Shown in pieces: positions 2,068 to 25,872 of a DNA stretch of 25,872 nt (positions within the stretch are counted from its first letter, which is position 1; every line of letters begins with the position of its first letter). This DNA is from an uncultured Mollicutes bacterium (lineage in GTDB: Bacteria; Bacillota_I; Bacilli_A; Acholeplasmatales; Anaeroplasmataceae): assembly GCA_947174685.1 (NCBI GenBank), contig CAMWJY010000001.1:1-25872 (forward strand), given 5' to 3'. The notes under the pieces are model-generated. The model worked only from the letters and a program-made list of their open reading frames with translations, did not search any database and was not told the origin of the DNA. The translations under genes and the position numbers were made by a program.

Positions 2068-2082
2068 GTTTGGTGAAATGAT

Positions 2083-8533: not shown

Positions 8534-11500
8534 ATGAAAGGATCTTCAAAAAATATTTTAAGAAAAGGAATAAAGCTGATTGGTTTGCTTGCTATGATAT
8601 TGGCAATCGCCTTTATCATTCATAAGCCACTTCAAGAATCTACAGATTTTATAGACGAAGAAGAGTTTGTGCCTCAAGAGCAAACAGATAGAATAAATTT
8701 GGCAAGTACTGCTCCTAACAGCGTAACAGATACTGTTTCTAGCAGTTTGACAGATATTGTTTCTAATAGTGTGGAGTATATTGAGCCGTCATATTCTACA
8801 ACTTCATATAGTATTAGCTATAGTGGAAATACTGATGGTGTGAATACAATCACGTTAAATTATATGTATTTTAATGCATCCCCTGGAGGAAACATTCAAA
8901 TACCTTCCAATTATTATTCAGGTAATACAAATTATACAATAACACGGATTGCAACGAATTTCTATATTCGATATTCTTCATATTATTCATATTATCTTTA
9001 TCCATCAGTGGTAAAATTGCCTGCCTCTATAAGACGTATTGAAAATAATGCGTTTGCACAAAGTTACTTTAATAATACTAAATTTGACTTATCATTGTGT
9101 ACAAACTTAGAATACATTGGTACAAATGCCTTCTATACAACTTCTTCTGAAAATAATCGTAGTATTGTGCAAATAGCTGAATATATGCCAAATCTTACAG
9201 AAATTGGAGAGAATGCCTTTAGAAATGCATTTAAAGTGGAATATGATACAAACGATAGTATGAATATCATGAGCATCAAGCGTATTGGAAAGTATGCTTT
9301 TGGAAATGATACAAACACATCTTCAGGATATTCCTATACTGGTTTACGTGGTATCGTATTTGGAGATTCTTTGGAATATATGGGAGATTATGCTTTCTAC
9401 AATAACGATGGTCTAGAAGATATAAATATTCCAGCAAGTTGTCAAGCAGTTGGCGCATATGCATTTGCTAGCTGTCAGAATATGATTACTGCAACGGTAA
9501 GAACACCGAAAATTGGTACAGCTGCCTTCAAAGATGATGCATCCTTGGTTTCTGTGCGTATAAGTGATTTGACAGAAGAAATTCCTGATTATTGCTTCCA
9601 AAGCTGCAACGCTTTGAGTACAGTCACATTATATCCAAGTTATGATGATATTTCCTTAAGTACTTCTTTAACGAGAATTGGTAAGAATGCATTTAGTAAT
9701 ACAAACTTAAATACATTTACCCTTCCTCAAAATGTTACAGAAATAGGAGATTATGCTTTTGCTGATTGTCGTGGTATGATCGCATTTGATTATTCTATAG
9801 CAGTAGAAAACATGAAGTTAGGAAATGGTATCTTACAAGGCTGTTCCAATATTGAAGAAATTGTAATTCCAGGAGATTTATTTGATTCCTGTGGTATTGA
9901 TTTCTTACGAGATGCAACCTTGCTTTCTAAGGTTACTTTCTTAAAGCAAAATGTTTTAGAGCCAGGCTTCTTTGCAGGATGTGCAAATTTAACAACAATA
10001 ATCTTTGCTGCAGAAGATCCTATTACTCGTATTCCTGATGAGTATTTTAGAGATTGTGTTAAATTAAGTGAATTATCTTTTGTTGATACCACTGGTACAC
10101 ATCATGGTGAATTATCAAGAACAATTGAATCAATTGGTGCATATGCATTCTACAACACTGCTTTTCCAGAAATTACAGTTTCTAATACTGTTGACAGTGT
10201 TGGAAATTATGCATTTGCCAATATGCAATTATTAACATATGCAAGTGTGAATTCAAAAGATATCAGCTATAGAATGTTCTATGGTTGTCCATATTTAGAG
10301 ACTGTTTATATTGGCTCTAATGCTTCAAATGTAATTAAGAAAACAGAAGAGAACATAAGCTCATACGAATTTAATTATAGTACAAATGAGGAAACAATAA
10401 TAAACAAGACGGTTCAAAAAAATGCCGCTTTTGCAAGTTGTATTCGTTTAAATAATCTTACTCTAGAGTGTCCAACCCTAGGTGCTTATATGTTCGATGG
10501 ATGTCTAAGCTTAGAAGAAGTGGAATTAAAAGCGACAATTCGTAATGTAGAAACACATGCCTTTGCAAATTGTCAAGAATTAAGCAGTGTAACTTTACTT
10601 ACTAGTGCATTAGGTGAATTTATGTTCGCAAATGATACTAAGTTAAAGAATATCACCTTAAATCCAAACACAACTACAATCCCAGCACATGCTTTCTATC
10701 GTTCAAACCTAGAATCAATTTCTATCCCATCCTCTGTTACTACAGTTGGAAATTTAGCATTTGCATATTCAATATCTTTACAGTATGCAGATTTGAATTC
10801 ATGTCAAATGATTTCACCTTATATGTTCTTCAATTGTATTGCATTACAGGAAATTGAAATCCCTGCAAATGTTGGCGATAATGTTGGAGATTATGCTTTT
10901 GCTAATTGTACAAATTTAAAAAATGCAATTATTCATAATAGCAAGATTAGTAATTATATGTTCTATAATGACCCATTGCTTTGTGCGCCTTCTACAAGTC
11001 ATCAGACTTTAGTTTTAGGAAGCAATATTCAAACGGTTGGTCAACGCGCTTTTTCAAAATCTGGTGTTACAAAGGTTGAGATAGCAGCAGATCAAATCAG
11101 TAATTATATGTTTGAGGATTGTTTAAGTCTTCAAGAACTTACTATTGGAATTGATGATGGTACTGGTTCATTTGATGCACCTTCTCAAATTGGTTCTTAC
11201 GCATTTAAGGGATGTACTCATTTGAATAGTGTTACTTTAAACATTAGCAAAGTTGGTTCTCATATGTTTGATGGCTGTAATAGTCTTACTTATCTAGTCT
11301 TAGGAAAGCCTATGCAATTGATTGATGAATATGCATTCGCAAATTGTTCTAGTTTAGCAACTGTAAGTACTACAGACCTTACAAATTTAACTGAAATCAA
11401 ACAATATGCATTCGCAAATTGTATTAAATTAAATTCTTTTGTAGTTCCTGATTCTGTTACGAAATTAGGCTTAGGTGTGTTTAGCAATTGTGCAAGCCTT

Positions 11501-14500
11501 AATACTATTACCATTCCTTTTGTTGGTGAAACATTAAATGCTGCAACCACAACTCAGACTGGTTCTACTAGTACAGTATTTGGCTGGATTTTCGGTTCAA
11601 TAGCTTCAGATTCTTCTGCTAGAATTACCAGCTATTATTCAGATACTGGCAATGTTTCATATTATGTTCCAACAGGATTGAATAATGTTATCATTACCCA
11701 AGAAAAAATTGTTATTTATGGTTCATTCTATGGGTATACAATGATACAATCTATTAATATCCCACTCAATACAGAAATCATCCAATCAAAAGCTTTCTAT
11801 GGATGCGAGGGATTAACAGACTTTGTTGTTCCATCTACAGTGAAGAATATTGGTACCGAAGTATTGGCTGAATGTATTGGATTGAGACAAGCTACATTAA
11901 ATTGTAATATTATGGGAACAAAGATGTTCTTCAATTGTGTTAAACTACATACAGTTCACTTGAAAGAAGTTAAATATGTTTCAACCTCTGCATTCCAAGG
12001 CTGTGTAGCATTAGAAATAGTAGACTTGAATCAAGGCAATGGTAGCTTAGGCAATATTTGTACAACTATTTATGAAAAAGCCTTCTATGGATGTAGTAAT
12101 CTTGTTACCCTTGAATTCCCATCTACGATAACACTTATCGATTCTATGGCATTTATGGATTGTGTGAAATTATCTTTTATCACATTACCAAGCAGTTTAA
12201 CTACGTTAAAACAACAGGCATTTGCAAATTGTGATAGTTTAGTATCCATTGTAATCCCTCAGAATTTATCTGAATTAGAAGCATCAATCTTCGTTAATTG
12301 CGATAACATAAGATCTGTGTTATTTACGAATGAGATTGTTGGAGAACGTATGTTTGAGGGCTGTAATACTATTCAAACAATTGAATTACAAAGAATTAAA
12401 GAAATTAAAAAGTTTGCTTTTTCAAATTGTTCTAGTATAGAAGATTTAATTTTACCAAATACTTTAACAACTCTTGGTCAAGGTGCTTTTATGAATTGTG
12501 CATCTATAAAAGAACTTGTTGTGCCAGAATCTGTTGTTTCTGTTGATGCTAGTGTATTCCAAGGCTGTACTGATTTACTTTATGTAACACTTAAAAATAC
12601 AAAAATGGGAACAAGTATGTTTGAAAACTGTACAAGCTTAAGAAATGTAGCTTTTGGAGCTCCAGAAACAGCTCCAGCTTATGCAATTTCTTCTAGAGCT
12701 TTCTATGGATGCTTTGAATTGCTATTCCCAGAATTGCCAAAAAATATTAATGAAATTGGAAGCTGGGCATTTGCTCAATGCTATAGAAATACAATTATTA
12801 ATATTCCAAAGACGATTGGAACTATGGGAGTAGGTGTATTTTGGGATATTGATGTTGAGGAAGCTATCATACCATTCATAGGTATGAATCGTGAACCAGC
12901 ATATCTTTCATATAGTGGTAATTATGGTTATTCAAGATATGTATTAGGTTGGATATTTGGTGCATCTAATCCTAGTTTGAATCCAACTATTGTGGCTAGT
13001 GGAACAAATTATACAACTCCATCTAAGGCTTATGAATGTAAAGTAAGCTATAATAATTCATATTCTTACTACTATAAGACAGAAGCTTGGTATTTACCTA
13101 AGTCTTTAACGAAGGTAACAGTGACAGATGCAAAAACTATACCATATTTTGCTTTCTGGTCAGCAGTAAATTTGACTGATATTGTAATAGAAGATACAGT
13201 AGAAATTATTCGTGAAAGTTCAATGTATAATTGTACAAGCTTAACAAATCTAGTAGTTCCATTCATAGGACTTGAACGTGGGGCTACAGGTGTTGCAAAT
13301 ACAAGTATTTTCTATGGTAGTTCTACGATTCGTTTCCATAAGAGCAGCATTGCATCATGGTTCTTGACAATGCCTGGTGGAAGCTATAGTTCTGTAGTTT
13401 ATAATGACTATGATAAAACTTCACCAGTAACTACGGTAGTTACGAGTGAACTTTCTATGCCAGCTACGACAAATTATAGTCATCCAATTCGTTATCAAGT
13501 TCCACTTTCTTTAAAAAATGTTGTAATAAGAGATTCTAATAATAAGAATTCTAGTTCTAAAAATTCTATAGGATTAGGTGAAGCTGCATTTTATAATTGT
13601 TCAATGATAAAAAATGTTACTTTTGAAGGTCATTTAGTAGCAATTGGTAAGAATGCGTTCTATAATTCTGGCATTGATTTCATTGATATTCCTAGTACGG
13701 TTGGAACTGTTGGCGAAGGTGCTTTTTCAGGCATGAAGAGCTTAGAAAATGTTATTGTTCGTTCATCAAGTATTTCTTCAAAAATGTTTGAAGGCTCTAC
13801 TGGATTAAAGAATGTTGAGATTTTAGGAACTAATGTTTCAGTTGGTTCTGCTGCATTTAGAAATTGTACATCTTTACTATCTGTTAACTTTAATCAATCT
13901 GTAATTAGTGTAGGAGAAGAAGCGTTCGCTGGATGTACGAAGTTAGAATCCTTATACATTAATAAGATTGGCTGTATATCAAATGGTGCGCTTCTTGCTG
14001 GATCTCACAATTTTGGATATTTATTCGGTAAGACTGCTGGTACAGGATTAGTTGCAAATACTACTCAGATTTCTGAAACAGAAACTGTAGTTAGATATTT
14101 ACCACAAAATTTATCTGTATACTTTATTGGTAGCGAAATTCCTGCTTATGGTTTTGCTGGTGTTTCAAGTATTCAAATAATCGATTTAGCTGAAGGCTTA
14201 ACAAAAATTGGTGATTATGCATTTAAAAATACTACAAATTTGAAGACTATTAGAATCCCATCATCCTTTAAAACGGATGGAACAACACCTGCTGGTGGAA
14301 AGAATATTTTCGAGAATTCTGGCTTAGTAACTGTTTATTTTGGTGAAGGAATTTCTAAAATATATGAGGGAATGTTTGCAGATTGTAGTGAACTTACAAA
14401 TCTGATTTTCGAGTCAACAACTACTATATATGAATACCGCTATATTTCAAACAATATATTCGAAGAATATAAAAAGGTAGGTTATACAGGTCAATTTATT

Positions 14501-17500
14501 TCTACAAATCGCTTAATTTGTGGTGGTAGAGATTTGACTGTAGGTACTGCAGATGACATTGAAAATATTATAATTGGTGGAGATTCCAAGTATTATCTTG
14601 ATAATCAAGACGGTACTTATTATGCATATGGTAAGGATACTTTGTTAGGAACATCTGATGATGTCTTAATTGGTATGGGTAATGACCAAGTATTAGGTAG
14701 CGATGATGACTTCGTTATCGTAGAATTTGGTGGTAAAAAATATAAAGATTTCTTTGATAATACCTATTGTACTATTACTATTGTAGAAGCAGAAGATGGA
14801 CAATGGAATTATGCATTTGGAATGACAAGATATACAAGAATAAATAATGCTTTTGTTGAAATTATTTTAGATGAAAAAGACCAAGCTTACATTGCTGTTC
14901 AAGATGATCAATATATTCTTTACCGTAGTACAGGCAAGGATGGAATCATTGGTACAGAAGATGACCGAATTGTTTTCTTAGGATTAACGGGTACAGAATA
15001 TACTAACATAACTGATGCAATTATTTATGATAGTGTCTTTGTTTGGGATGGCAAATTATATTATGATTATAGAGATAATACTTATCAAGAAATTGTTGTT
15101 TCTTCTACAGATGCCAATGGCTTTAGATTAGAAGAAATCTTTGGTGCTGGTCCAGATGCAATCATTGGTACAGAAGATGATATCTCTAAGTATACATCTA
15201 TAACTTTTGATAAGATTCAATCAGATGATTCTTTAGCGGATTATGGTAAATTATTATCTACTATCGATCAGAAGGCATTACAAGAATATACATACCAACG
15301 CATTATTACTGGCGATGATGGTACACATTACATTTATTTGCCTTGGGCTTCTTATTTGAATGAGCCTTCTTATTTAGGCTGTGGTAGAGATGGTCTATTA
15401 GGTACTGACGATGATATTTTAGGCGCTACAACAAACTTTAATATTGTTGTTGAAACTCCTAAACCAGAAGAAGAAATTATCATTCCAGTTGTAAATACGA
15501 CAACCTATAGAGTTTATGAATATAGAAGATATGAAGATAACGTTATGGCAAATACAGTTAAAATAATAGAAGAAGAAGCCTTCATTAACTGTACGAGCTT
15601 AACAAATTTAGTTCTTTCTGCACAATTGGTTGAAATTCATGACAAGGCATTCTTTAATAGTGGCTTAGAAGAAATAACAGTTCCTTCTTCAGTAGAATTC
15701 CTTGGTAGACATGTATTTGCTGAAAATAAGAGTTTAGTAAATGCAGTCATTATGTGTGAAGTCATTGGAGAATATATGTTTAGTAAGGATGAAAAACTTG
15801 CAAAAGCTTCTATCGCATATAATACAAGAGAAATAAGTAAAGGTGCATTTTATGAATGTAAGTCTTTAAGAATCATTACTTTCCATTCTAATTTCATTCA
15901 AGATATTCATTATGAATTGCCAGATGGATATTTCCCTGATGGAAGTGAGCCTTCTAATGGATCACCTGATGAACCAGAGGATCCTCTGCCGGGTGAGGAC
16001 TATGTTACATTCTTAGTTCGTAGAGCTCAAAGCAGTGCTGTAACTGTTGAAAATGGATTAGATAATAAGGAAGGTACTGCAGACGATTACTATAGCTATG
16101 GTAATTATTATAAACTAATTGGTATTGACTTAGTTGCTCAAACAATGGATGATATTGTTGTATTAATTTATGATGGCGCATATTATGAAGTAGTAGGTTA
16201 TCAAAATTTAAATAAAACAATTAACCTATATCGAAAAGTGACTTATTCTGCAGGAACAAATTCATTTATTTTTGGTGATTATTTCTTAGGAAATAGCAAT
16301 GGTGAATTCTCTTTAGAAAATCAATCAGTAACATTAAATTTAATAGAGGATGCAAGTGGTAATTATTCCTATAAAGTGGGTAATTTAGTATATGATTATG
16401 GCCAAGATGGTAAGCTTGGTACTACAGATGATGTCATCACTATTACAATTGATCAAACGACCTATGTTGTAGTAGAAATTGAAGGATCATATTATACTGA
16501 ACTTGCTACAAATGTTTATTATGAAGTAGATGTTGATTCCTTAACACTTAGACTTGTTTATTATGATGGTACAAGCTTTGTAGATACAATTGCATCTATT
16601 ATGAATCAATACTATTTTGTAAATGAAAATCACACATTACAATTGATTTCTAATGGCTCTATTGAAGAAGATGTTTATATTTTAGATAATAACATTTTAG
16701 TTTCAGTAGAAGAAAAACAGCCTAATCAATTCTTTGAATTCTTAAGAGGTAACTTCTATCGTTTATGGCAATATTCCAATAATCAGTTTAGATCATCTAT
16801 TGTTTGTGTAATGGATGAAGAGTTTGAAACTTTAGAAGATGCAGTATATTTAAGAGGAAATGATACATATGCTGTCTTCCTTGGAAATGCTTTATATCAG
16901 GTTCCAGGAGCTGATGGACTTTACGGTACAGATGATGATGAATATATCATCAATGATAATCCAACAGAAAATGTTGGTGGTCTAGTTTTCGTGTATCGTT
17001 CTGATGGAAAATACTATCATTATCATAATTTCAATATTTACTTTGTATTAGATTTAGATAATTATGTTTATAGCTATGTATGTGCTGGTCTAGATGAAGA
17101 TCCAACTACTGAAAGTGATAACTTCACAAATGTTGTTATAGGAAATGACGGTAACTTCTATTTGAACAATGAAGACGGAACTTATTATACTGTAACTAAC
17201 AGCAAATTAACTGGTACAGCTTCTGATACATTGGTTTGCCCTCAGGATGCTACAACTATTGGCAATCCAACAGATTATGTATTAAGAAAATATAATGAAG
17301 AATTCTATAGAGATTATTTAGATAATACCTTTGCAAAAGTTGATTTTGTAAAGCAAGGTAATTATTGGAAGGCTCAATTATCTGATGAACGTTTTGTAGG
17401 TACAAATACAGGTGCATTAGATCCTACAATTACACCAAGAATTACAGTGGAAAATAGAAATGGATTAGTGTATATCGATAATCATGATGGTACATTTACG

Positions 17501-20500
17501 TTATTAGGTAAAGATAATCTATTTAATACTGCTGATGATACACTTCATTTATTAATGGAAAATCAAGTTGCAGATGCAGATGATCCAAAGGTTGTTAAGG
17601 GATCTTACGTAAGTCAAGGTTCATCTGAAGAAGAAACGTATTATTACTTAGATATGGGTGATAATCATAACGTATATCGTAAGTATCAGATTTCTGGAAC
17701 AGAAGGAAATTATGAATATACTGACTTAGGTTTAATTGCAGCTAACATTGATTTTAAACCAGGTAATGTAAATGATGTTACTGCTTTCTATAATGAAACT
17801 TTAAAAGCATACTATTATTTAGATTCTTCTAGTGCTAGAAGAGGCTATGGTGAAGATGGTATTCTATATGGTTCCGGAAAGAATCAAGATTCCAAATATG
17901 TCATGGCTGATGGAAACTATGTAGATGTTACAACAATCACATTAAATGGTGTGGCTAATCTATATCATATTAATGCGGATAATACATATACAAAATATAT
18001 AGAATTAGATACACCTGTTGATGGAAATACGCATAGAGTAGACGGCTATGTTTGCTTAGGAAGTGACCGTGTTCTTCAAAGCACCGATTCTACTGATGTA
18101 GTAGAAGTCATTGTTAATGGTGAAGTGCTTCATTTCTTACATATAGCAGGAATGCCAACATATATTGCTGCTGGTGAAGATGGTTTACTAGGCTTTGGCG
18201 ATGATGATATTTTATGTCATGTTGGAACTGGCGGAATAGAATTCACAGGTGAAGGCTCAGATGATATCCTTGATATCGTTGCTGGAAAAGAAGATGAATA
18301 TTATTATAAGCATGTTGCAGGAAATATTTATCAACGTATTGAAAGTGGTGTATTAGGACGTTATGTTGCAGCTGGACTTGTTTCAGGTGAATACTGTGTT
18401 GGTACAGCAAAGGATTTAGTTCAAAATACAAATGATATTCAAAACATTACTACAGATTATGTAGAATTCGATTCAAATAACTATTTACTTGCTACAGCTG
18501 ACGGAATAATTAGCTTTGAAGAAAGTCAAATGGTACATACTTCAAATATTAATGACCCAGCTACTTATGTACTTGTACATAATGGTAAGGATAATACTTA
18601 TCATACTGCTGATGACTACATTGTAGTAGATGGCATAGCAACATTCGCACAACAAGATGGATTAATTGGATCAACAGATGATTTGACAAATGTTGTTTTA
18701 GGCTTAGACGAATTACCTTATGAATATGATTCTGTTAAGGATATTTATTATACCTATACTTTATCAGTAGATAGATTTGTTGAAGCCTTTGACGGAAATT
18801 CAAATCGTATCGCTCTATATTCTTCAAATGCTGTTGGCGATAGTGAGGATAAGACTTTAACTGCTCTAACTTTAAATGGCACAACTCAATATTATTTACA
18901 AAATAATTCTACAAGCTTTTATACATATGCAACAGGTACTATATTAGAATATTTAGTTCATGTTGGCTTGAACGATGACGGAACAGCTGCCTCATTAGGA
19001 AGTGTTTATAACTATGCAATGGTTGGCAATACTGCTCACTTTGTTGGTCTAGATTTAAGAATCGGTACAAGTGATGACTTGGTTGCGTTCTTAGGAGAAA
19101 ATGATGAACGTCCATATACATATGTTGATTCTATAGATCATAACATTTATATTACATATGATTTAACAACTTATACAGAATTACCTTCCCCTACAGGCGG
19201 CAAGTATATCATTTCTGCAGGTAGTGACAGAAGAATCGGAACAGATGATGATATTGATACTGTTATTCAGGTATCTGGTCACTATTATTATACAGATATG
19301 GATGGCTTGTATTTCACATCACCTAATAATATATTAGGATATTCTGACATGAGAATGTATGTTGGCGCTGATGGTGAGATAGGTACAAAGGATGATTACT
19401 ATAATGTTACTCGTTATCTACCTGGTAACCTTGGATACAAGGCAACCTTCGTTGGACCAGATGGCTATTATAGCGGTGGTGACGATTTAATTGCAGTTCT
19501 AGGTGTAAATCAATATGCTTACTATGCACTTACAGATGCAAAGAAGAATCAATACAATAACTTATATAGACGTTATAGTATGGATGAAATGTCTTATATC
19601 TCATTAGTTGGTGATACAATTTGTGGTGGTGCAAATTGTCGTCCTGGAGATTCTGATGATATTACAGAAACTAGTGGCAAATTGGTTCACGCACAAAATG
19701 GTGATTGGTATTTGACAGTTGAAGGTAGTACAAAAGAGTATTTGAATAAGAGCTTTGATGGTTTACTTGGTACTGCAGATGATAAACACATCTTTATTGG
19801 TGAGGATGCTGAGCTTGGTACTTATGACGATTATTATTGGATTTTAATTGATAATTTCAATCGTAAGGTATTCCCAGGTACAACACCTATATTAGACAGT
19901 GATACAGATGAAGTAAAAGAGTGGAAGAGATTCCATGGTGATGACGTATTCTTTACTGAAGATGATTATTATAGTGTTCCATCTGAACAAATTGTTGAGG
20001 TTGAAAACCAAACTCCTTATTCTCTAGAAAGTATTCAGGATTATGCATTCTATAATTGTGTTTCTTTAGAGCATTTACAATTATATTCTCCTGATGATTT
20101 CAATACTTATCAAAACTTAAATACTTTAGGTTCCTATGCTTTTGCTGGATGTACTTCTTTAAAAGAAATGATTTTCCCTTATACTCTACAAGGAGATAAA
20201 TTGACATCAGCAGATGATACTGGATATGGTGAATATATATTTGAAGGCTGTACATCATTAGAGACTGTTACTTTCAATGAAACATATTTAAGCCATGCTA
20301 CCTTTATTCCTAAAGGAATGTTTAAAGGATGTATCTCTCTATCTGAATTATACTTCTATGATTCCTTAACTAAGCTTGAAATGAATCATTTCTCACCTTA
20401 TCTTGAGGAAATTAGAGAAGAAGCATTTATGAATACATGGGCTATGGATGAGGATGGCAAGCCAATTTCATCAGATCCAGAGATAGGAAGCGTTGTAATT

Positions 20501-23500
20501 GAAAAATCTACTCTTAAGGTTTTAGAGCACGCATTCTATAATTCAGACATTACTCATGTAACCTTTAAGGCTGAAGAACAGATTGAGTTTGGTTCTGAAG
20601 TATTTAAGAATTCTAAAATAGAATATGCAGAATTCAATTTTATAGAAACATTTGCTTATCGTATATTTGATGAGTGTATATATTTAAGCACAATCTATAC
20701 ACATGAAAATGGAGTAAAGCTTGAGAAAAATACTTTATCAAGTGATGTGAAAAACATTGAAGAGCAAGCATTCAGAGGAACAATTGCTCTAAAAGAACTT
20801 CATATAGATGATGAGATAGATTATATTGGTGATGAAGCATTTATAGGAACAGGATTAGAGTCTATTCGTATCCCTTCATCCCTATCAAAGGAAGATACAG
20901 AAGATCATTTAGGTGTATCTGTTTTTGAGAATGCAAAATCATTGACTTATGCAGAATTTGCTTATGGTACAGTAATCATTCGTGATAAATTATTTAAGAA
21001 TTGTACTTCCTTATCAACTTTACAATTCTATGATTATGAAGGAAACCAAACAGGGGTCGCTGTTACAGCAAATGAGGGTATTTATGAGGTTGATTTCGTA
21101 GCTAAGGAAGATTATGTAACCTCTGGTACTGTTACGGCTCTACAATTAAATACTTTCGCAACAACTGTAACTACAGTGGAGCAATATGCTTTCTATAACT
21201 GTCCTTTAAATGGTATGATTGATGGATCCTATACAGATACTATTCATACAATCACATTTACAAACAGCTTGACAAATCTTGGTGATTATTGCTTTGCATA
21301 TACTGATATTGAAAGTATTGCAATTCCTTCAAGCATAAAGCAAGAGAATATCGGTGATTGTGTATTTGCACATTGTAAAAAACTAAAAGATATTGTCTTT
21401 GAAAATGAAGGCCTTGGTAATCAAATGTTCTATGATTGTACAGGTCTTATCAGATTAGAGTTCCCAAGTGGAGTAACCTCTATTGGTGCTTACGCATTCC
21501 AAAATTGTACCGCTTTGGAGACTGTTATCATTCCTAAGGACGTACAATATATTGCAGAAGGTGCTTTTGCAAACTGTATAAAGATTTCACAGCTTACCTT
21601 ACCATTTATTGGTTCTGAGCGTGGAAGTACAGGTGAAGAGGGATTATTTGGTTGGATTTTTGGTAGTAATCCAGTTGATACTATTGAGCCTACAAGACAA
21701 TATTATTCTCAAACTGAATATAAGGATAACTATATCCCAGTTACAATTCAAAGAATCACAATTACTGATGAAACCTTAGTTAGCTATGGTGCTTTCTATA
21801 ACTGTGTATTAGAGTATATTAAGCTCCCAGATTTACAGGACAAAGATGTAAATGCAGATAATGTTAGTCAATTGGTACGCATTGGCGATTATGCATTCTA
21901 TAATTGTCCAAATCTAGATACTGCATTAATTCCTACTCAAATTACTGCTATCGGTAATTATGCCTTTGCATACTGTGTGAATGTAGAAAACCTAGCGCTT
22001 CCAGCAGGCTTAAAGGAATTAGGTAATTATTCTTTCTATCATTGTGAATCTTTACCTACTATTACAGTTCCATCCTCTGTTTCATCTAGTTTGATTGGTA
22101 CACATGTATTTGCATACTGTACATCAATTCATACTTTATATTTGGAAAATGATTCATTGGGTGCTAAGATGTTTAGTAACTGTATTAGCTTAGTTTCTGT
22201 TGTAATTCCTGTTGGAGTTACGACAATTGAAACAGCAACCTTTGAAAATTGTACAAGTTTAAAATATGTTGCTATTCCAGAAACTGTAACTGAAATTAAC
22301 GAAGCAGCCTTTAAGCAATGTGCTTCATTAGAGGTTTTAATCTTACCATTCATTGGATCTGAACGAGGAAATTCTGGTACGCCTCAATCCTTATTTGGAT
22401 GGGTATTTGGTACTACTGGTTCAGCAGCTGATTCCTTTGATGGTGCACAAACAGTAAATCAGGTTTATGCTGCATCTAAATCTAGAAATGTCTTAGTACC
22501 AAGCACATTAAAAGAAGTATATATTACAGATGAAACTGTGATTGGTTATGGCGCATTCTCTAACTTCTATATGTTAAAGAAAATCGTTATCTCTCAAGAC
22601 TTAAAATTCTATGGAGATGATGAGAATCATACATTTAGTTTTGATTTACAGCGTGATGAAGATGAAAATGTAATTGGTGTAACACTTCCACTACAGGATG
22701 CTACCTTATATAATGGTATGTATATATATAAGGATAATACATATACTATGCCAAATCAGGCTACACCTTTAGATGAAGAAGAATCATTGAGTACAATGAT
22801 TGATTTCTATAGCTTATATGTTGATACAAATATTGCACATATTTATCCTTATGCATTCTCTAATAATAATGGATTGACTAATGCTTTCTTAGGCGTTACA
22901 AATATAGCAGATTCTAGTTATGCATTTAATGATTGTTCTAAATTAGAGTATTGTTATATGCCTGATGCTACAGGTACCCAAGCAGATAATATGTTTGCTT
23001 ATTGTACAGGATTAAAGCGTGTTATCATCCCAGATACAATTAATATCTTAGGTGAAGCTGCATATCGTTGGTGTTTGAATATTGAATACTTCCAAGTACC
23101 TTATCTTGGTCGTGATGGCGGTACGCTTATTGATGGTAAGAGATTCCAGCAAACAATAGGCTATCACTTTGCTCCAGATGAGACTTATAGAGGAAGTGAA
23201 TCTACTTATTATAATAGAAATATTTCTTCTTATTGTGGTGGTAATTTCACCTATGATCCTACCGCTCCAGATTATAATTCTTATTATGGAAGAACTTCTA
23301 TACGTTATGTGCCTAGAAGCTTTAAGCTAGTAGTCACTTTAGATACACGTCTAACTTATTCTAGTTTAGCACAAATGGGCACTGCATTAACTGAAGTATA
23401 TTTCTCTGATCAATTAACATATATAGAGTCTAATTTCTTTACTAGTACACCTGATGTAAAGAGACTTGGTGTATGGGATTCTACTAATTATCATATTAAT

Positions 23501-25872
23501 GAAATTCCAGAAGGCCAAGCAAGATTTACGGATAATTTATTAACTATTGCAGCTCAAGGCTTTGCTGGTTGGCATGGTCTAAAGGATATTGTAGTACCAA
23601 ATAGTGTACAAATGATTGGTACAGATGCATTTGTTAATACAGGTCTTGTGAAGATGGTTTTACCATTTGTTGGTGTAAGTAGACCTCAGGATCTTTCAAA
23701 ATATCCTACAGGAAATTTAGGATTAAATGCTACTTTTGGTTGGTATTTTAATGAAGATGATAACAATTATAGCGTTCAAAATACTCGTTGGAATGCAACA
23801 AAGGTTACTTATCCAATTAACTCACAAAAGGTTTCTAGTTATAATCCAGATTCAGCAGTTTGGGTTCCTTCAACGTTAAGAACTGTAATCATTACAGATA
23901 CAGATACAATTGCTGATGATGCCTTTAGAAATATGTCAATGATTCAAAGAATTGTCCTTCCATTTGGTCTAGATACAGAGGATGAGAATAAGCTAGGTAT
24001 GCCACCAGTGTATGCCTCTGATGAAGCAGAGCTTTGTGATATCTCTGTAACCTCAATCGGTAATCATGCTTTTGATGGTACAGGCTTACTTGAAATGTAT
24101 ATTCCTGCAAGTGTTGATACAATAGGAGAGTATGCATTTAGTAATAATAAATCAATGACAAAGTTTGTATCTAATACAGATGCAATTAACAATTATATGT
24201 TCTATGGCTGTACTAGATTGTTTGATGTTGTATTAGATTATATTACAGTTATTCCAGATTATGCTTTCTATGAGTGCGATGCATTAGTATCTATCCATAA
24301 TACAAGTGAGGATGATTGGAATATATTTGAGCATCAAATTACATACATTGGAGATTATGCTTTCTATGGCGCTGATCATTTCACTTACCCACTAACAGAA
24401 GCAGAAGCGAATACAACTTTAATTACTTCTATTGGCTGGTATGCTTTTGCCAATATTGCTGATATTGGTCAATCAGGCAGTGATATTGTAGTTCATTTAC
24501 CTGTTGATTTGAATACACTAGGTGAAGGTGCATTCTATAACACACCTAATATCTCTGAATTCTATATGTATGATAAGGTTACATCTATGCCTTATGAACA
24601 TACATATACGGCAGCTTCAACAGAATATAAAGGTATTTTGGAGAATGTTGCTCACTTGAGAATATTCAAGAGTGAGAGTGCAATCATTATGGAAAGAATG
24701 AACATGAATGATGCAAAGCTTGAAACATTATATATTCCTTATGTAGAAAATATAAAGGCTTATGCATTCTATGGAAATACTTCCTTAAAAGATGCAACAA
24801 TTTCTTCTGCAAACATTATAGAAGATTATGCATTCTATCATAATACATCTTTAAGAGACTTTGCCACTGGCGCTTATATTGGTGGTTCCTTTGATGCTAC
24901 AACTACGGTGTTTGATACATTAATTACATCTATTGGTAATTATGCATTTGATGGAGATACAGTATTAGTTTATCCATTTAAGAATCCTTTAAATGATGCA
25001 ATCGTGATTACATCCATTGGAAATTATGCATTCAGAGATTGTAAGTTTATGGGTGGTTCTAAAGAAGTGTCTACAACTGTAGGAGAAGATACAGTTATTT
25101 CTACTCAAGCACTTGGAAAGGCAGATGTTGTCTTACCTAAAACATTGACAACATTAGGTGAAAATGCGTTCTTAAATGATACGAATATTCGTTCATTAGT
25201 AACTCCAGAAGGATTAGTTACAATTGGTGATTATGCATTTAGAAATTGTACCGATTTACAGGAAATCACTATGCTTGGTGAAATTTCTGGTGCTGGTATG
25301 TTTAGAGGGGATACTGCGCTTAAAAATGAAGATGGAACTAAGATTCATATAGAAAAATTGACAATAATAGCAAGAGAAATGTTTGCTGAATGTATCAATT
25401 TGAAAAATATTTACTTGCCAAAGCAAGATGTTGAGACGAATGCTTTAGGTCTAAAAACTATTGGTGATTTTGCATTCTTTGATACACGTGCTGTAGTAAA
25501 TGATTTTGGTACTGATGAGTATCATGAAACAATTTATGTTCCTAATACGGTACAAACCATTGGTTCATTTGCATTCTATAATAATCAGGCTATTAAAAAT
25601 ATCTATATTGAAAAAGATTCATTATTGACGATGGGTGTTTCAACTTTTGCAAGTTGCTTTAGTCTAGAAACCTTAACTATCCCATTCATTGGCTATCGTC
25701 AAGGGGATGATACAACTTCCAATTATTTGTATTTCCCATACAATATTAATAGTGTTAATACTACTACAAAGGCTTATTCTACAACATATTATTATTATTC
25801 AACATTACATTTTAATTTCTATTTGTATGAATATGCTTACTATAATCCAGCAAATAATGCAAGAACATATAA
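8534..25872 (+). CDS. Giant secreted/surface BspA-type LRR protein with inserted acidic GxDxxxGTxDD-repeat domains (partial, at least 5779 aa, runs off the 3' end)
   Basis: ATG 8534 gives MKGSSKNILRKGIKLIGLLAMILAIAFIIHKP, a basic N-region plus hydrophobic segment with a possible AIA signal peptidase site. Manual translation gave no stop, and the last codons ...PANNARTY (TAT 25868-25870) are in the same frame. The track lists no + ORF here, which fits an ORF that lacks a stop within the window. LRR_5-like blocks at about 9008-14413, 15551-15883 and 20015-25872. Confidence 0.93.
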   Translation, partial: MKGSSKNILRKGIKLIGLLAMILAIAFIIHKPLQESTDFIDEEEFVPQEQTDRINLASTAPNSVTDTVSSSLTDIVSNSVEYIEPSYSTTSYSISYSGNTDGVNTITLNYMYFNASPGGNIQIPSNYYSGNTNYTITRIATNFYIRYSSYYSYYLYPSVVKLPASIRRIENNAFAQSYFNNTKFDLSLCTNLEYIGTNAFYTTSSENNRSIVQIAEYMPNLTEIGENAFRNAFKVEYDTNDSMNIMSIKRIGKYAFGNDTNTSSGYSYTGLRGIVFGDSLEYMGDYAFYNNDGLEDINIPASCQAVGAYAFASCQNMITATVRTPKIGTAAFKDDASLVSVRISDLTEEIPDYCFQSCNALSTVTLYPSYDDISLSTSLTRIGKNAFSNTNLNTFTLPQNVTEIGDYAFADCRGMIAFDYSIAVENMKLGNGILQGCSNIEEIVIPGDLFDSCGIDFLRDATLLSKVTFLKQNVLEPGFFAGCANLTTIIFAAEDPITRIPDEYFRDCVKLSELSFVDTTGTHHGELSRTIESIGAYAFYNTAFPEITVSNTVDSVGNYAFANMQLLTYASVNSKDISYRMFYGCPYLETVYIGSNASNVIKKTEENISSYEFNYSTNEETIINKTVQKNAAFASCIRLNNLTLECPTLGAYMFDGCLSLEEVELKATIRNVETHAFANCQELSSVTLLTSALGEFMFANDTKLKNITLNPNTTTIPAHAFYRSNLESISIPSSVTTVGNLAFAYSISLQYADLNSCQMISPYMFFNCIALQEIEIPANVGDNVGDYAFANCTNLKNAIIHNSKISNYMFYNDPLLCAPSTSHQTLVLGSNIQTVGQRAFSKSGVTKVEIAADQISNYMFEDCLSLQELTIGIDDGTGSFDAPSQIGSYAFKGCTHLNSVTLNISKVGSHMFDGCNSLTYLVLGKPMQLIDEYAFANCSSLATVSTTDLTNLTEIKQYAFANCIKLNSFVVPDSVTKLGLGVFSNCASLNTITIPFVGETLNAATTTQTGSTSTVFGWIFGSIASDSSARITSYYSDTGNVSYYVPTGLNNVIITQEKIVIYGSFYGYTMIQSINIPLNTEIIQSKAFYGCEGLTDFVVPSTVKNIGTEVLAECIGLRQATLNCNIMGTKMFFNCVKLHTVHLKEVKYVSTSAFQGCVALEIVDLNQGNGSLGNICTTIYEKAFYGCSNLVTLEFPSTITLIDSMAFMDCVKLSFITLPSSLTTLKQQAFANCDSLVSIVIPQNLSELEASIFVNCDNIRSVLFTNEIVGERMFEGCNTIQTIELQRIKEIKKFAFSNCSSIEDLILPNTLTTLGQGAFMNCASIKELVVPESVVSVDASVFQGCTDLLYVTLKNTKMGTSMFENCTSLRNVAFGAPETAPAYAISSRAFYGCFELLFPELPKNINEIGSWAFAQCYRNTIINIPKTIGTMGVGVFWDIDVEEAIIPFIGMNREPAYLSYSGNYGYSRYVLGWIFGASNPSLNPTIVASGTNYTTPSKAYECKVSYNNSYSYYYKTEAWYLPKSLTKVTVTDAKTIPYFAFWSAVNLTDIVIEDTVEIIRESSMYNCTSLTNLVVPFIGLERGATGVANTSIFYGSSTIRFHKSSIASWFLTMPGGSYSSVVYNDYDKTSPVTTVVTSELSMPATTNYSHPIRYQVPLSLKNVVIRDSNNKNSSSKNSIGLGEAAFYNCSMIKNVTFEGHLVAIGKNAFYNSGIDFIDIPSTVGTVGEGAFSGMKSLENVIVRSSSISSKMFEGSTGLKNVEILGTNVSVGSAAFRNCTSLLSVNFNQSVISVGEEAFAGCTKLESLYINKIGCISNGALLAGSHNFGYLFGKTAGTGLVANTTQISETETVVRYLPQNLSVYFIGSEIPAYGFAGVSSIQIIDLAEGLTKIGDYAFKNTTNLKTIRIPSSFKTDGTTPAGGKNIFENSGLVTVYFGEGISKIYEGMFADCSELTNLIFESTTTIYEYRYISNNIFEEYKKVGYTGQFISTNRLICGGRDLTVGTADDIENIIIGGDSKYYLDNQDGTYYAYGKDTLLGTSDDVLIGMGNDQVLGSDDDFVIVEFGGKKYKDFFDNTYCTITIVEAEDGQWNYAFGMTRYTRINNAFVEIILDEKDQAYIAVQDDQYILYRSTGKDGIIGTEDDRIVFLGLTGTEYTNITDAIIYDSVFVWDGKLYYDYRDNTYQEIVVSSTDANGFRLEEIFGAGPDAIIGTEDDISKYTSITFDKIQSDDSLADYGKLLSTIDQKALQEYTYQRIITGDDGTHYIYLPWASYLNEPSYLGCGRDGLLGTDDDILGATTNFNIVVETPKPEEEIIIPVVNTTTYRVYEYRRYEDNVMANTVKIIEEEAFINCTSLTNLVLSAQLVEIHDKAFFNSGLEEITVPSSVEFLGRHVFAENKSLVNAVIMCEVIGEYMFSKDEKLAKASIAYNTREISKGAFYECKSLRIITFHSNFIQDIHYELPDGYFPDGSEPSNGSPDEPEDPLPGEDYVTFLVRRAQSSAVTVENGLDNKEGTADDYYSYGNYYKLIGIDLVAQTMDDIVVLIYDGAYYEVVGYQNLNKTINLYRKVTYSAGTNSFIFGDYFLGNSNGEFSLENQSVTLNLIEDASGNYSYKVGNLVYDYGQDGKLGTTDDVITITIDQTTYVVVEIEGSYYTELATNVYYEVDVDSLTLRLVYYDGTSFVDTIASIMNQYYFVNENHTLQLISNGSIEEDVYILDNNILVSVEEKQPNQFFEFLRGNFYRLWQYSNNQFRSSIVCVMDEEFETLEDAVYLRGNDTYAVFLGNALYQVPGADGLYGTDDDEYIINDNPTENVGGLVFVYRSDGKYYHYHNFNIYFVLDLDNYVYSYVCAGLDEDPTTESDNFTNVVIGNDGNFYLNNEDGTYYTVTNSKLTGTASDTLVCPQDATTIGNPTDYVLRKYNEEFYRDYLDNTFAKVDFVKQGNYWKAQLSDERFVGTNTGALDPTITPRITVENRNGLVYIDNHDGTFTLLGKDNLFNTADDTLHLLMENQVADADDPKVVKGSYVSQGSSEEETYYYLDMGDNHNVYRKYQISGTEGNYEYTDLGLIAANIDFKPGNVNDVTAFYNETLKAYYYLDSSSARRGYGEDGILYGSGKNQDSKYVMADGNYVDVTTITLNGVANLYHINADNTYTKYIELDTPVDGNTHRVDGYVCLGSDRVLQSTDSTDVVEVIVNGEVLHFLHIAGMPTYIAAGEDGLLGFGDDDILCHVGTGGIEFTGEGSDDILDIVAGKEDEYYYKHVAGNIYQRIESGVLGRYVAAGLVSGEYCVGTAKDLVQNTNDIQNITTDYVEFDSNNYLLATADGIISFEESQMVHTSNINDPATYVLVHNGKDNTYHTADDYIVVDGIATFAQQDGLIGSTDDLTNVVLGLDELPYEYDSVKDIYYTYTLSVDRFVEAFDGNSNRIALYSSNAVGDSEDKTLTALTLNGTTQYYLQNNSTSFYTYATGTILEYLVHVGLNDDGTAASLGSVYNYAMVGNTAHFVGLDLRIGTSDDLVAFLGENDERPYTYVDSIDHNIYITYDLTTYTELPSPTGGKYIISAGSDRRIGTDDDIDTVIQVSGHYYYTDMDGLYFTSPNNILGYSDMRMYVGADGEIGTKDDYYNVTRYLPGNLGYKATFVGPDGYYSGGDDLIAVLGVNQYAYYALTDAKKNQYNNLYRRYSMDEMSYISLVGDTICGGANCRPGDSDDITETSGKLVHAQNGDWYLTVEGSTKEYLNKSFDGLLGTADDKHIFIGEDAELGTYDDYYWILIDNFNRKVFPGTTPILDSDTDEVKEWKRFHGDDVFFTEDDYYSVPSEQIVEVENQTPYSLESIQDYAFYNCVSLEHLQLYSPDDFNTYQNLNTLGSYAFAGCTSLKEMIFPYTLQGDKLTSADDTGYGEYIFEGCTSLETVTFNETYLSHATFIPKGMFKGCISLSELYFYDSLTKLEMNHFSPYLEEIREEAFMNTWAMDEDGKPISSDPEIGSVVIEKSTLKVLEHAFYNSDITHVTFKAEEQIEFGSEVFKNSKIEYAEFNFIETFAYRIFDECIYLSTIYTHENGVKLEKNTLSSDVKNIEEQAFRGTIALKELHIDDEIDYIGDEAFIGTGLESIRIPSSLSKEDTEDHLGVSVFENAKSLTYAEFAYGTVIIRDKLFKNCTSLSTLQFYDYEGNQTGVAVTANEGIYEVDFVAKEDYVTSGTVTALQLNTFATTVTTVEQYAFYNCPLNGMIDGSYTDTIHTITFTNSLTNLGDYCFAYTDIESIAIPSSIKQENIGDCVFAHCKKLKDIVFENEGLGNQMFYDCTGLIRLEFPSGVTSIGAYAFQNCTALETVIIPKDVQYIAEGAFANCIKISQLTLPFIGSERGSTGEEGLFGWIFGSNPVDTIEPTRQYYSQTEYKDNYIPVTIQRITITDETLVSYGAFYNCVLEYIKLPDLQDKDVNADNVSQLVRIGDYAFYNCPNLDTALIPTQITAIGNYAFAYCVNVENLALPAGLKELGNYSFYHCESLPTITVPSSVSSSLIGTHVFAYCTSIHTLYLENDSLGAKMFSNCISLVSVVIPVGVTTIETATFENCTSLKYVAIPETVTEINEAAFKQCASLEVLILPFIGSERGNSGTPQSLFGWVFGTTGSAADSFDGAQTVNQVYAASKSRNVLVPSTLKEVYITDETVIGYGAFSNFYMLKKIVISQDLKFYGDDENHTFSFDLQRDEDENVIGVTLPLQDATLYNGMYIYKDNTYTMPNQATPLDEEESLSTMIDFYSLYVDTNIAHIYPYAFSNNNGLTNAFLGVTNIADSSYAFNDCSKLEYCYMPDATGTQADNMFAYCTGLKRVIIPDTINILGEAAYRWCLNIEYFQVPYLGRDGGTLIDGKRFQQTIGYHFAPDETYRGSESTYYNRNISSYCGGNFTYDPTAPDYNSYYGRTSIRYVPRSFKLVVTLDTRLTYSSLAQMGTALTEVYFSDQLTYIESNFFTSTPDVKRLGVWDSTNYHINEIPEGQARFTDNLLTIAAQGFAGWHGLKDIVVPNSVQMIGTDAFVNTGLVKMVLPFVGVSRPQDLSKYPTGNLGLNATFGWYFNEDDNNYSVQNTRWNATKVTYPINSQKVSSYNPDSAVWVPSTLRTVIITDTDTIADDAFRNMSMIQRIVLPFGLDTEDENKLGMPPVYASDEAELCDISVTSIGNHAFDGTGLLEMYIPASVDTIGEYAFSNNKSMTKFVSNTDAINNYMFYGCTRLFDVVLDYITVIPDYAFYECDALVSIHNTSEDDWNIFEHQITYIGDYAFYGADHFTYPLTEAEANTTLITSIGWYAFANIADIGQSGSDIVVHLPVDLNTLGEGAFYNTPNISEFYMYDKVTSMPYEHTYTAASTEYKGILENVAHLRIFKSESAIIMERMNMNDAKLETLYIPYVENIKAYAFYGNTSLKDATISSANIIEDYAFYHNTSLRDFATGAYIGGSFDATTTVFDTLITSIGNYAFDGDTVLVYPFKNPLNDAIVITSIGNYAFRDCKFMGGSKEVSTTVGEDTVISTQALGKADVVLPKTLTTLGENAFLNDTNIRSLVTPEGLVTIGDYAFRNCTDLQEITMLGEISGAGMFRGDTALKNEDGTKIHIEKLTIIAREMFAECINLKNIYLPKQDVETNALGLKTIGDFAFFDTRAVVNDFGTDEYHETIYVPNTVQTIGSFAFYNNQAIKNIYIEKDSLLTMGVSTFASCFSLETLTIPFIGYRQGDDTTSNYLYFPYNINSVNTTTKAYSTTYYYYSTLHFNFYLYEYAYYNPANNARTY
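14417..15550 (+). repeat. Non-LRR insert 1 (about 378 aa) with 6 GxDxxxG[TS]xDD motifs
   Basis: Motifs at 14525 GRDLTVGTADD, 14630 GKDTLLGTSDD, 14678 GNDQVLGSDDD, 14933 GKDGIIGTEDD, 15149 GPDAIIGTEDD and 15383 GRDGLLGTDDD. No LRR periodicity in between. Confidence 0.85.
15884..20014 (+). repeat. Non-LRR insert 2 (about 1377 aa) with about 16 or more GxDxxxGTxDD-type motifs
   Basis: Exact matches at 16055, 16400, 16907, 19046, 19220, 19364 and 19799, plus about 9 near matches (e.g. GKDNLFNTADD, GEDGLLGFGDD, GKDNTYHTADD, QQDGLIGSTDD, SFDGLLGTADD). Rich in Tyr, Asp, Gly and Thr. Opens with a Pro/acidic linker (LPDGYFPDGSEPSNGSPDEPEDPLPGED). Confidence 0.85.
21290..22580 (+). repeat. Internal duplication of a 248-aa LRR plus PFIG-module unit (744-nt offset) in the giant ORF
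   Basis: Colinear anchors all at a 744-nt offset: PSS (21326/22070), EN..LG..MF (21401/22145) and PFIGSERG (21602/22346). These are followed by LFGWIFG/LFGWVFG and ITDETxxxYGAF in both copies. Confidence 0.8.

Follow-up and report, generated by a model that had tools for sequence, protein, structure and literature searches.

PERCAL-type loops as connectors of an uncatalogued, predicted β-hairpin scaffold in a giant leucine-rich repeat protein of an uncultured Mollicutes bacterium

Introduction

PERCAL is a Ca2+-binding motif with the consensus G-x-D-G-x-x-[GN]-[TN]-x-D-D, first defined as 11-residue insertions in bacterial animal-haem-peroxidase domains, such as that of Pseudomonas putida PepA (Santamaria-Hernando, Krell and Ramos-Gonzalez, 2012, PLoS One 7:e40698, PMC3396595). 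Specific Ca2+ binding was reported for a consensus peptide by isothermal titration calorimetry (Kd 33-79 µM), Ca2+ binding was also reported for the PepA peroxidase domain (Kd 12 µM), and the Ca2+ site of the pseudopilin GspG from enterohaemorrhagic Escherichia coli (EHEC; PDB 3G20) was given as PGPDGVPNTEDD (PMC3396595). In 3G20, Asp3, Thr8 and Asp11 are named as ligands together with main-chain oxygens in the figure text, while the Discussion takes position 8 as a main-chain contact (PMC3396595). The stretch of DNA considered here, referred to as the window, comprises the 25,872 nucleotides of contig CAMWJY010000001.1 (assembly GCA_947174685.1) from an uncultured Mollicutes bacterium of the Anaeroplasmataceae. 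It holds a gene for a giant BspA-type leucine-rich repeat (LRR) surface protein (8534..25870, + strand), in which two inserts are punctuated by copies of the motif GxDxxxGTxDD. Judged by its sequence, this motif is the already published PERCAL calcium-binding loop, and the inserts are probably a Ca2+-stiffened extracellular β-hairpin module with PERCAL-type loops as connectors.

Number and identity of the motif copies

A search of the translation of 8534-25870 with the regular expression G.D...G[TS].DD gave 13 exact copies, as counted in an earlier inspection of the DNA without database searches (the sequence-only reading). They lie at amino acids (aa) 1998-3756, corresponding to 14525-19831 of the window, all inside the two inserts, whereas 2000 residue shuffles of the region yielded a mean of 0.004 copies and a maximum of 1. 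Copies with one mismatch within the six fixed positions numbered 6, against 0.136 expected by shuffling (maximum 2). The earlier figure of about nine near copies is thus roughly right, since these six are joined by at least two copies with two mismatches (GPDGYYSGGDD at aa 3641 and GANCRPGDSDD at aa 3699). Within the metagenome-assembled genome (1.24 Mb, 72% complete, GC content about 31-35%), of which the window is one entire contig, a profile of the unit gives 18 matches, every one of them within the host open reading frame (ORF), at 14501-19864. The spacing of the motifs is irregular, ranging from 16 to 224 residues among longer Tyr-rich hairpins, and a 16-residue tandem spacing occurs twice (aa 2033/2049 and aa 3740/3756).

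The host copies share the 11-residue pattern of PERCAL, and a strict match to its consensus is found in 5 of the 13 exact copies (aa 2134, 2284, 2623, 2792 and 3611). Position 9 is mostly A, T, E, D or S, as in the published sub-variants. Similar to the PDB examples of the original paper, the loop joins other structural elements, and the copies are short, insert-like elements of a larger, probably extracellular protein. The setting is nevertheless different, as about 20 loops occur in a 1700-aa β-hairpin scaffold inside an LRR protein instead of decorating a catalytic domain, and position 4 is often a residue other than Gly. The comparison with GspG drawn in the sequence-only reading proved correct, because the published PERCAL loop coordinates Ca2+ in 3G20; the loop pattern is shared, and the positions matching the Asp and Thr ligands of GspG are the most conserved ones in the host. 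However, the pilin fold of GspG contains a single site, with Pro at position 6 and Asn at position 7, and the homology is limited to 11 residues. No pseudopilin homology was found when PDB sequences and Pfam were searched with the inserts or the loop profile, or in the fold searches.

The region had also been described as unfamiliar and without a family name. As far as the motif is concerned, this claim is unsupported, because the motif has both a name and experiments behind it, and since it was already known, no new calcium site is revealed. For the surrounding β-hairpin scaffold the description stands, as no match was obtained in Pfam, NCBIfam or PDB. What is new is that PERCAL serves to connect the hairpins of a long scaffold, itself uncatalogued, in an LRR protein of about 16,000 residues.

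Layout and predicted structure of the inserts

The host protein matches Pfam LRR_5 over aa 1-1960 (E 2e-242) and aa 3831-5779 (E 6e-185). About 1700 aa between these blocks lack an LRR match, in approximate agreement with the 1750 aa proposed previously, but the stretch is not continuous. It is split by an LRR_5 island (15560..15895, + strand, aa 2343-2454, E 4e-20), and since the LRR_5 (PF13306) signal of the region is confined to this island, the region divides into one insert of about 350 aa and another of about 1350 aa. Insert 1 (14486..15538, + strand, aa ~1985-2335) is a predicted β-hairpin module with six exact motif copies, kept in 10 orthologues. Insert 2 (15911..19978, + strand, aa ~2460-3815) is a β-rich module with seven exact copies in addition to near copies, and has no family match. 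Positions 14513-14848 of insert 1 resemble 17078-17596 within insert 2 (~31% identity, E 1e-15), and the same internal match is seen in orthologues; this resemblance points to an old internal duplication. The region is acidic, as had been noticed, with 10.3% Asp and 272 Asp and Glu residues versus 100 Lys and Arg residues; it is also rich in Gly and Thr, and Tyr accounts for 9%.

AlphaFold2 models were obtained for insert 1 (mfe0dfeffcff5; predicted local distance difference test score, pLDDT, 76.7, with values near 90 in the first 200 residues; predicted template modelling score, pTM, 0.65) and for part of insert 2, aa 3440-3835 (m2886d64311ed; pLDDT 83.3, pTM 0.71). Both are essentially all-β. 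The motif positions were placed by eye on the DSSP strings, and each of the 14 copies covered by the models appears as an 11-12-residue coil adjoining β-strands, some of them opening with one helical turn. Two strands of at least 3 residues flank 11 of the 14, while in two more copies the strand on one side is only one or two residues long. The local pLDDT at the modelled copies is mostly 65-94. The copies are accordingly modelled as PERCAL-type loops. The Tyr-rich motifs recognised in the sequence-only reading are real, since YYLDNQDGTYY and YYDYRDNTY are β-hairpins in the models and the hairpin signature (F/Y-Y-I-D-N ... D-N-T-Y) is kept in orthologues (F31/Y32/I33/N35, N87/T88 and D192/N193/Y195 of alignment A3). 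In these models, the scaffold is an array of β-hairpins, a fold without assignment.

Conservation and calcium binding

Insert 2 is present in 12 of the 100 genomes of the same family that were searched (33-64% identity), representing 4 of 14 genera. When ten orthologues (29-66% identity) are aligned, identity at the fixed motif positions reaches 85%, as compared with 46% for the x positions of the motif and 47% for the remaining insert residues, and 54 of the 210 invariant columns lie within the 108 fixed motif positions. The most conserved motif positions in the orthologues are Asp3 and the two C-terminal Asp; likewise, D3, D10 and D11 are invariant across an alignment of 25 motif units (A1). 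The full-length orthologue G063:C11:50720-100213 (16,498 aa) carries PERCAL-type motifs solely at aa 2019-3763, and these motifs are therefore confined to the two inserts. A Cys just upstream of the motif had been suggested as a recurring feature. Invariance is seen for the first Cys of ICGGANC, and the Cys of VCAGLD is kept in 9 of the 10 orthologues, but the suggestion fails as a general rule, since two of the four Cys that had been named, those of ICGGRD and GCGRD, show no conservation in the ten orthologues.

In the arrangement that we infer from the two modelled stretches, hairpins, many with the pattern phi-Y-phi-D-N-x-D-G-T-Y, would be linked by 11-12-residue loops of the form G-x-D-(G)-x-phi-G-T-x-D-D. 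The analogy to PERCAL as described in the literature makes it most likely that every loop binds one Ca2+, for which GspG-type ligands may be supposed, namely the side chains of Asp3 and Asp11 along with backbone or Thr oxygens. Extracellular Ca2+ is assumed to lie well above the published Kd of about 10-80 µM. Under these conditions, roughly 20 sites per molecule would be filled, with the result that the loops would be locked, the strong negative charge would be partly compensated and the module would become stiffer or more stable. The module is probably a rigid spacer or a presentation/ligand-binding platform jutting from the LRR solenoid. A Ca2+-loaded, stiffened module is favoured because the protein is probably extracellular, about 20 PERCAL loops are present, the ligand positions are conserved and the net negative charge is large.

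Certain points weigh against this interpretation. The AlphaFold2 models were computed from ten-sequence alignments, which are shallow, and contain no metal. Among the 13 exact copies, 8 have L, T, Q, A, N or R in place of Gly4 of strict PERCAL; position 4 is their sole deviation, and several of these sites carry Gly in orthologues. A looser motif, G-x-D-G-x(5)-D-D, has no bound ligand in 4 of 6 PDB structures (PMC3396595). The lack of Gly4 and the ligand-free structures would agree with loops that are metal-free, structural Gly/Asp-rich turns capping the β-hairpins, conserved for folding only. Such an explanation is nonetheless unlikely. Conservation is highest at Asp3 and the two C-terminal Asp, where Asp3 and Asp11 correspond to the side-chain Ca2+ ligands of 3G20. 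Turn geometry alone hardly explains an invariant acidic triad, and the consensus peptide by itself was sufficient for specific Ca2+ binding (PMC3396595).

A different role for the metal can be envisaged, in which the module is a Ca2+-gated switch or spring. As long as Ca2+ is absent, for instance while the protein is being exported, it would be disordered or extensible, and it would fold only outside the cell, in an RTX-like manner. The strong net negative charge and the presence of about 20 putative low-affinity (µM) sites are in line with this scenario, as is the intracellular Ca2+ concentration of E. coli, which at about 90 nM is far under the Kd (PMC3396595, discussion). It is however highly improbable, since the module is folded confidently by AlphaFold2 without metal, with extensive β-sheet and with hydrophobic and aromatic residues around the loops. 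Furthermore, in contrast to RTX blocks, the loops account for no more than about 12% of the residues, and no type I secretion signal is evident, export apparently proceeding via the N-terminal anchor.

Family and fold searches

Neither the inserts nor the loop profile had a usable match in Pfam (searched to E 10), NCBIfam (to E 1) or PDB sequences, which is in keeping with the earlier remark that no named family was recognised for the region. Single motif copies match quinohemoprotein amine dehydrogenase weakly (PF09100, domain IV, E 0.009; TIGR03908, E 0.24), a result that fits the listing of amine dehydrogenase 1JJU among the PDB carriers of the looser motif (PMC3396595). For SdrD_B, CarboxypepD_reg and SpaA (PF17210, PF13620, PF17802), no match was obtained at E<=10 with four pieces covering the inserts. 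Other calcium-binding candidates were rejected, with no Pfam match in the inserts at E<=10 for EF-hand, dockerin, RTX/HemolysinCabind, TSP3 or Excalibur, and FG-GAP loops were considered and found to lack Pfam support there.

Comparison of predicted shapes was similarly unproductive. Foldseek (PDB and AFDB clusters) returned local 3Di likeness to β-propellers and WG/RHS repeats, rejected as fold matches at template modelling (TM) scores of 0.08-0.22. The best Z scores of VIA-align against 48,161 chains, 3.7 and 3.4, are under the usual background; its top match for insert 1 is the YD hairpin of YenB/RHS2, which aligns over 42 residues at Z 3.4, and no Pfam match to RHS_repeat was found. The ESM Atlas feature search gave no usable match. 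By shape, the nearest Atlas entries are choline-binding-repeat proteins, at TM 0.29-0.38 (under 0.5), and no Pfam match to choline-binding or cell-wall-binding repeats (PF01473, PF19127) was seen at E<=10. What the inserts have in common with the choline-binding and RHS/YD families is a Tyr-rich β-hairpin building block, with all structural scores far under significance; neither family is known to carry PERCAL loops. Hints of a β-trefoil lectin fold (VIA-align Z 2.0-2.7) were set aside as too faint.

These resemblances have a bearing on whether the inserts could chiefly be a ligand-binding head, lectin-like or host-matrix-binding, in which the Tyr-rich hairpins provide the surface, in the manner of choline-binding/cell-wall-binding or glucan-binding repeats, and Ca2+ is a cofactor or secondary. 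The high Tyr content, the choline-binding-like shapes and the faint lectin matches lean in this direction, as do related loop arrays in surface proteins that carry Flg_new, SLH and choline-binding domains, and BspA-type LRR proteins are a family linked to adhesion. Every structural match is, however, under significance (TM<0.4, Z<4), and the Pfam search of the region for choline-binding repeats was negative even at E 10. A ligand-binding head is moreover compatible with Ca2+ stiffening and so does not displace it; as the chief explanation of the inserts it appears improbable, and a Ca2+-stiffened hairpin module is still preferred.

The loop in other proteins

A 32-column profile of the 25 aligned units (A1) was searched against 1.84 billion representative proteins and matched 572 of them at E<=0.001, including 122 at E<=1e-10. 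Among the best 150 of the 572, exact copies number 1077, and their logo is [AP]-G-[PA]-D-G-[IVL]-[FLP]-G-T-[AE]-D-D-[VY]. Various frameworks are represented. In one of them, a single loop is carried by each SdrD_B/CarboxypepD_reg-type β-sandwich domain of ~105-125 residues in long tandem arrays; a spacing of about 91-140 residues was seen in 47 of the 150 best matches, and SdrD_B in 13 of the 68 matches scanned. The loop sequence of these arrays is the same as in the host, but the host has no matches to such domains and its spacing is irregular. SdrD B repeats of Staphylococcus aureus are Ca2+-dependent rigid stalk domains.

A second framework consists of tandem arrays in surface-type proteins, such as P0023, P0038 and P0008, that also carry Flg_new, SLH or choline-binding repeats. 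These arrays have a period of 16, 23 or 28 residues and are themselves without Pfam or NCBIfam coverage. They have in common with the host the loop, the 16-residue tandem spacing, an apparently extracellular location and the lack of annotation. They differ in being regular with little between the loops, whereas the host is irregular, and beyond the loop itself no sequence similarity was detected. A calcium loop would not be expected in P0012 (1678 aa), which has about 18 tandem 16-residue PERCAL repeats (GPDGL.GT.DDL....) and, near its C-terminus (aa 1551-1621), a partial match to the RcGTA/phage tail tape-measure family (99 bits versus a cut-off of 220). The loop also occurs in blades of TIGR04275-type β-propeller repeats and in YD-like small proteins without Pfam or NCBIfam assignment. 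In addition, the profile retrieves orthologues or paralogues of the giant LRR protein, as well as an animal-haem-peroxidase-like fragment with 5 copies (P0054), peroxidases being the founding family of the motif.

Judging from these matches, PERCAL behaves as a portable loop, and the giant LRR protein is one more scaffold for it. PERCAL loops are thus used far outside the peroxidases and pseudopilins of the original description, with at least three further frameworks that are either uncovered by Pfam/NCBIfam or not flagged there as calcium-binding. In the present family, a 1700-residue hairpin module with PERCAL connectors has been kept in surface proteins of 15,000-16,500 residues by relatives with small genomes (1.3-2.1 Mb). 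With a curated model of the repeat, hundreds of representative proteins could be annotated, and such a model would provide a testable handle, Ca2+/EGTA (ethylene glycol tetraacetic acid), on how very large surface proteins of bacteria behave mechanically. A bolder proposal, put forward tentatively and rather doubtful at present, is that the unit of Tyr-rich hairpin and PERCAL loop is a new, autonomous fold family of Ca2+-dependent β-hairpin repeats, related to the unannotated short-period PERCAL arrays, which occur in hundreds of representative surface proteins and in the protein with the partial tape-measure match, and acting as a Ca2+-rigidified material. If true, such a family would be a general structural material of very long extracellular proteins, beside RTX, cadherin-like, BIg and SdrD-B stalks.

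Individual motif copies

All copies are on the + strand; E denotes a predicted β-strand, numbered by residue in the model of insert 1 (model 1) or of the insert 2 part (model 2). In insert 1, the first exact copy, GRDLTVGTADD (aa 1998, 14525..14557), is a loop at residues 9-19 of model 1, adjoined by single-residue strands only (7 and 20). GKDTLLGTSDD (aa 2033, 14630..14662) follows the hairpin YYLDNQDGTYY and is a loop between E40-42 and E55-58, with G, D, L, G, T, D and D invariant across 10 orthologues. It is followed 16 residues on by GNDQVLGSDDD (aa 2049, 14678..14710), between E55-58 and E71-76. The strict PERCAL copy GKDGIIGTEDD (aa 2134, 14933..14965) lies between E138-143 and E156-162, and GPDAIIGTEDD (aa 2206, 15149..15181) forms a coil after E208-215, succeeded by a single-residue strand at 228. 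In GRDGLLGTDDD (aa 2284, 15383..15415), again strict PERCAL, the residues G, D, L, G, T, D and D are invariant in 10 orthologues.

In the first part of insert 2, the exact copy GLDNKEGTADD (aa 2508, 16055..16087) is mostly GLDGIEGTADD in orthologues. The mismatch scan added GIDLVAQTMDD (aa 2530, 16121..16153; one mismatch) and the near copies GKDNTYHTADD (aa 3351, 18584..18616) and QQDGLIGSTDD (aa 3373, 18650..18682). Two exact copies are strict PERCAL, namely GQDGKLGTTDD (aa 2623, 16400..16432), where the weak PF09100 match lies over the stretch, and GADGLYGTDDD (aa 2792, 16907..16939), found by the regular expression. The near copy GKDNLFNTADD (aa 2992, 17507..17539), located after the hairpin VYIDNHDGTF, has an Asn at position 7 that PERCAL allows and a residue other than Gly at position 4; in four orthologues this site reads G[AE]DGKFNT.DD, which is strict PERCAL. 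At the near copy GEDGLLGFGDD (aa 3214, 18173..18205), four orthologues have GADGLLGTA-D (three) or GEDNLLGTL-D (one).

The remaining copies are covered by model 2. The exact copies GLDLRIGTSDD (aa 3505, 19046..19078), with GADG..GT.DD in four orthologues, and GSDRRIGTDDD (aa 3563, 19220..19252) are loops between E61-64 and E77-81 and between E120-122 and E135-141, respectively. GADGEIGTKDD (aa 3611, 19364..19396), exact and strict PERCAL, lies between E167-170 and E183-190, its G, D, G, T, D and D being invariant across orthologues. The degenerate copy GPDGYYSGGDD (19454..19486), between E194-200 and E213-217, aligns with GPDKLFGTADD in one orthologue and GVDKVFGT.DD in two, and the site is thus canonical in three orthologues. 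GANCRPGDSDD (19628..19660), also degenerate, is preceded by an invariant Cys and modelled as a coil at residues 260-270; the canonical motif is present at this site in none of the 10 orthologues. Finally, the near copy SFDGLLGTADD (aa 3740, 19751..19783), which is G.DGYLGTADD in two orthologues, lies between E296-299 and E312-315, and 16 residues further the exact copy GEDAELGTYDD (aa 3756, 19799..19831) lies between E312-315 and E328-333.

Host gene and its surroundings

The window holds three genes on one strand (145-2067, 2083-8166 and 8534-25870), each encoding a BspA-type LRR_5 protein. The host gene is the last of them; it is open at its 3' end and runs off the end of the contig, with 5779 aa encoded so far. 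The N-terminus of its product has a basic stretch followed by a hydrophobic helix that constitutes a transmembrane or signal anchor (MKGSSKNILRKGIKLIGLLAMILAIAFII), and because of this anchor the protein is probably membrane-anchored and extracellular. A word-based search of catalogued proteins found a single partial orthologue, the nearest homologue at 65% identity, which is a partial 'leucine-rich repeat domain-containing protein' from a metagenome-assembled genome of the Anaeroplasmataceae. Orthologous open frames span 14,925-16,498 aa in related genomes of 1.3-2.1 Mb, so that one gene takes up ~2.5% of the genome; by comparison with these frames, the window ORF makes up the initial third of a giant gene encoding about 16,000 residues. 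In the 16,498-aa orthologue, LRR_5 extends to about aa 13,600, and the final ~2,900 aa are without any Pfam family. The C-terminus of this orthologue (L015:720-890, - strand) has a dockerin-like sequence (GDLTGDGICDYNDMMEVQKHIVG...AADITNDRYVDDSDLIEMMQNI), which matches Pfam Dockerin_1 at E 0.0011 and 19.6 bits, slightly below the gathering score of 22.9; a dockerin in this lineage, if true, would imply a cohesin partner.

The protein of 2027 aa encoded at 2083-8166, on the same strand as the other two, has an N-terminal transmembrane segment, followed by many tandem repeats of ~85-90 aa (a very rough estimate, by eye) and then by the LRR_5 region. The repeats follow the pattern Y-D-G-x-x-H ... 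N-x-x-x-x-G-x-Y-x-V and have no Pfam assignment at E<=0.01. The protein of 640 aa encoded at 145-2067, likewise on this strand, starts with a lipoprotein-like leader (LLMGCSS), and its LRR_5 block is preceded by repeated His/Cys modules (H-x-H ... C-x-x-C), which are without Pfam assignment and may be metal-binding.

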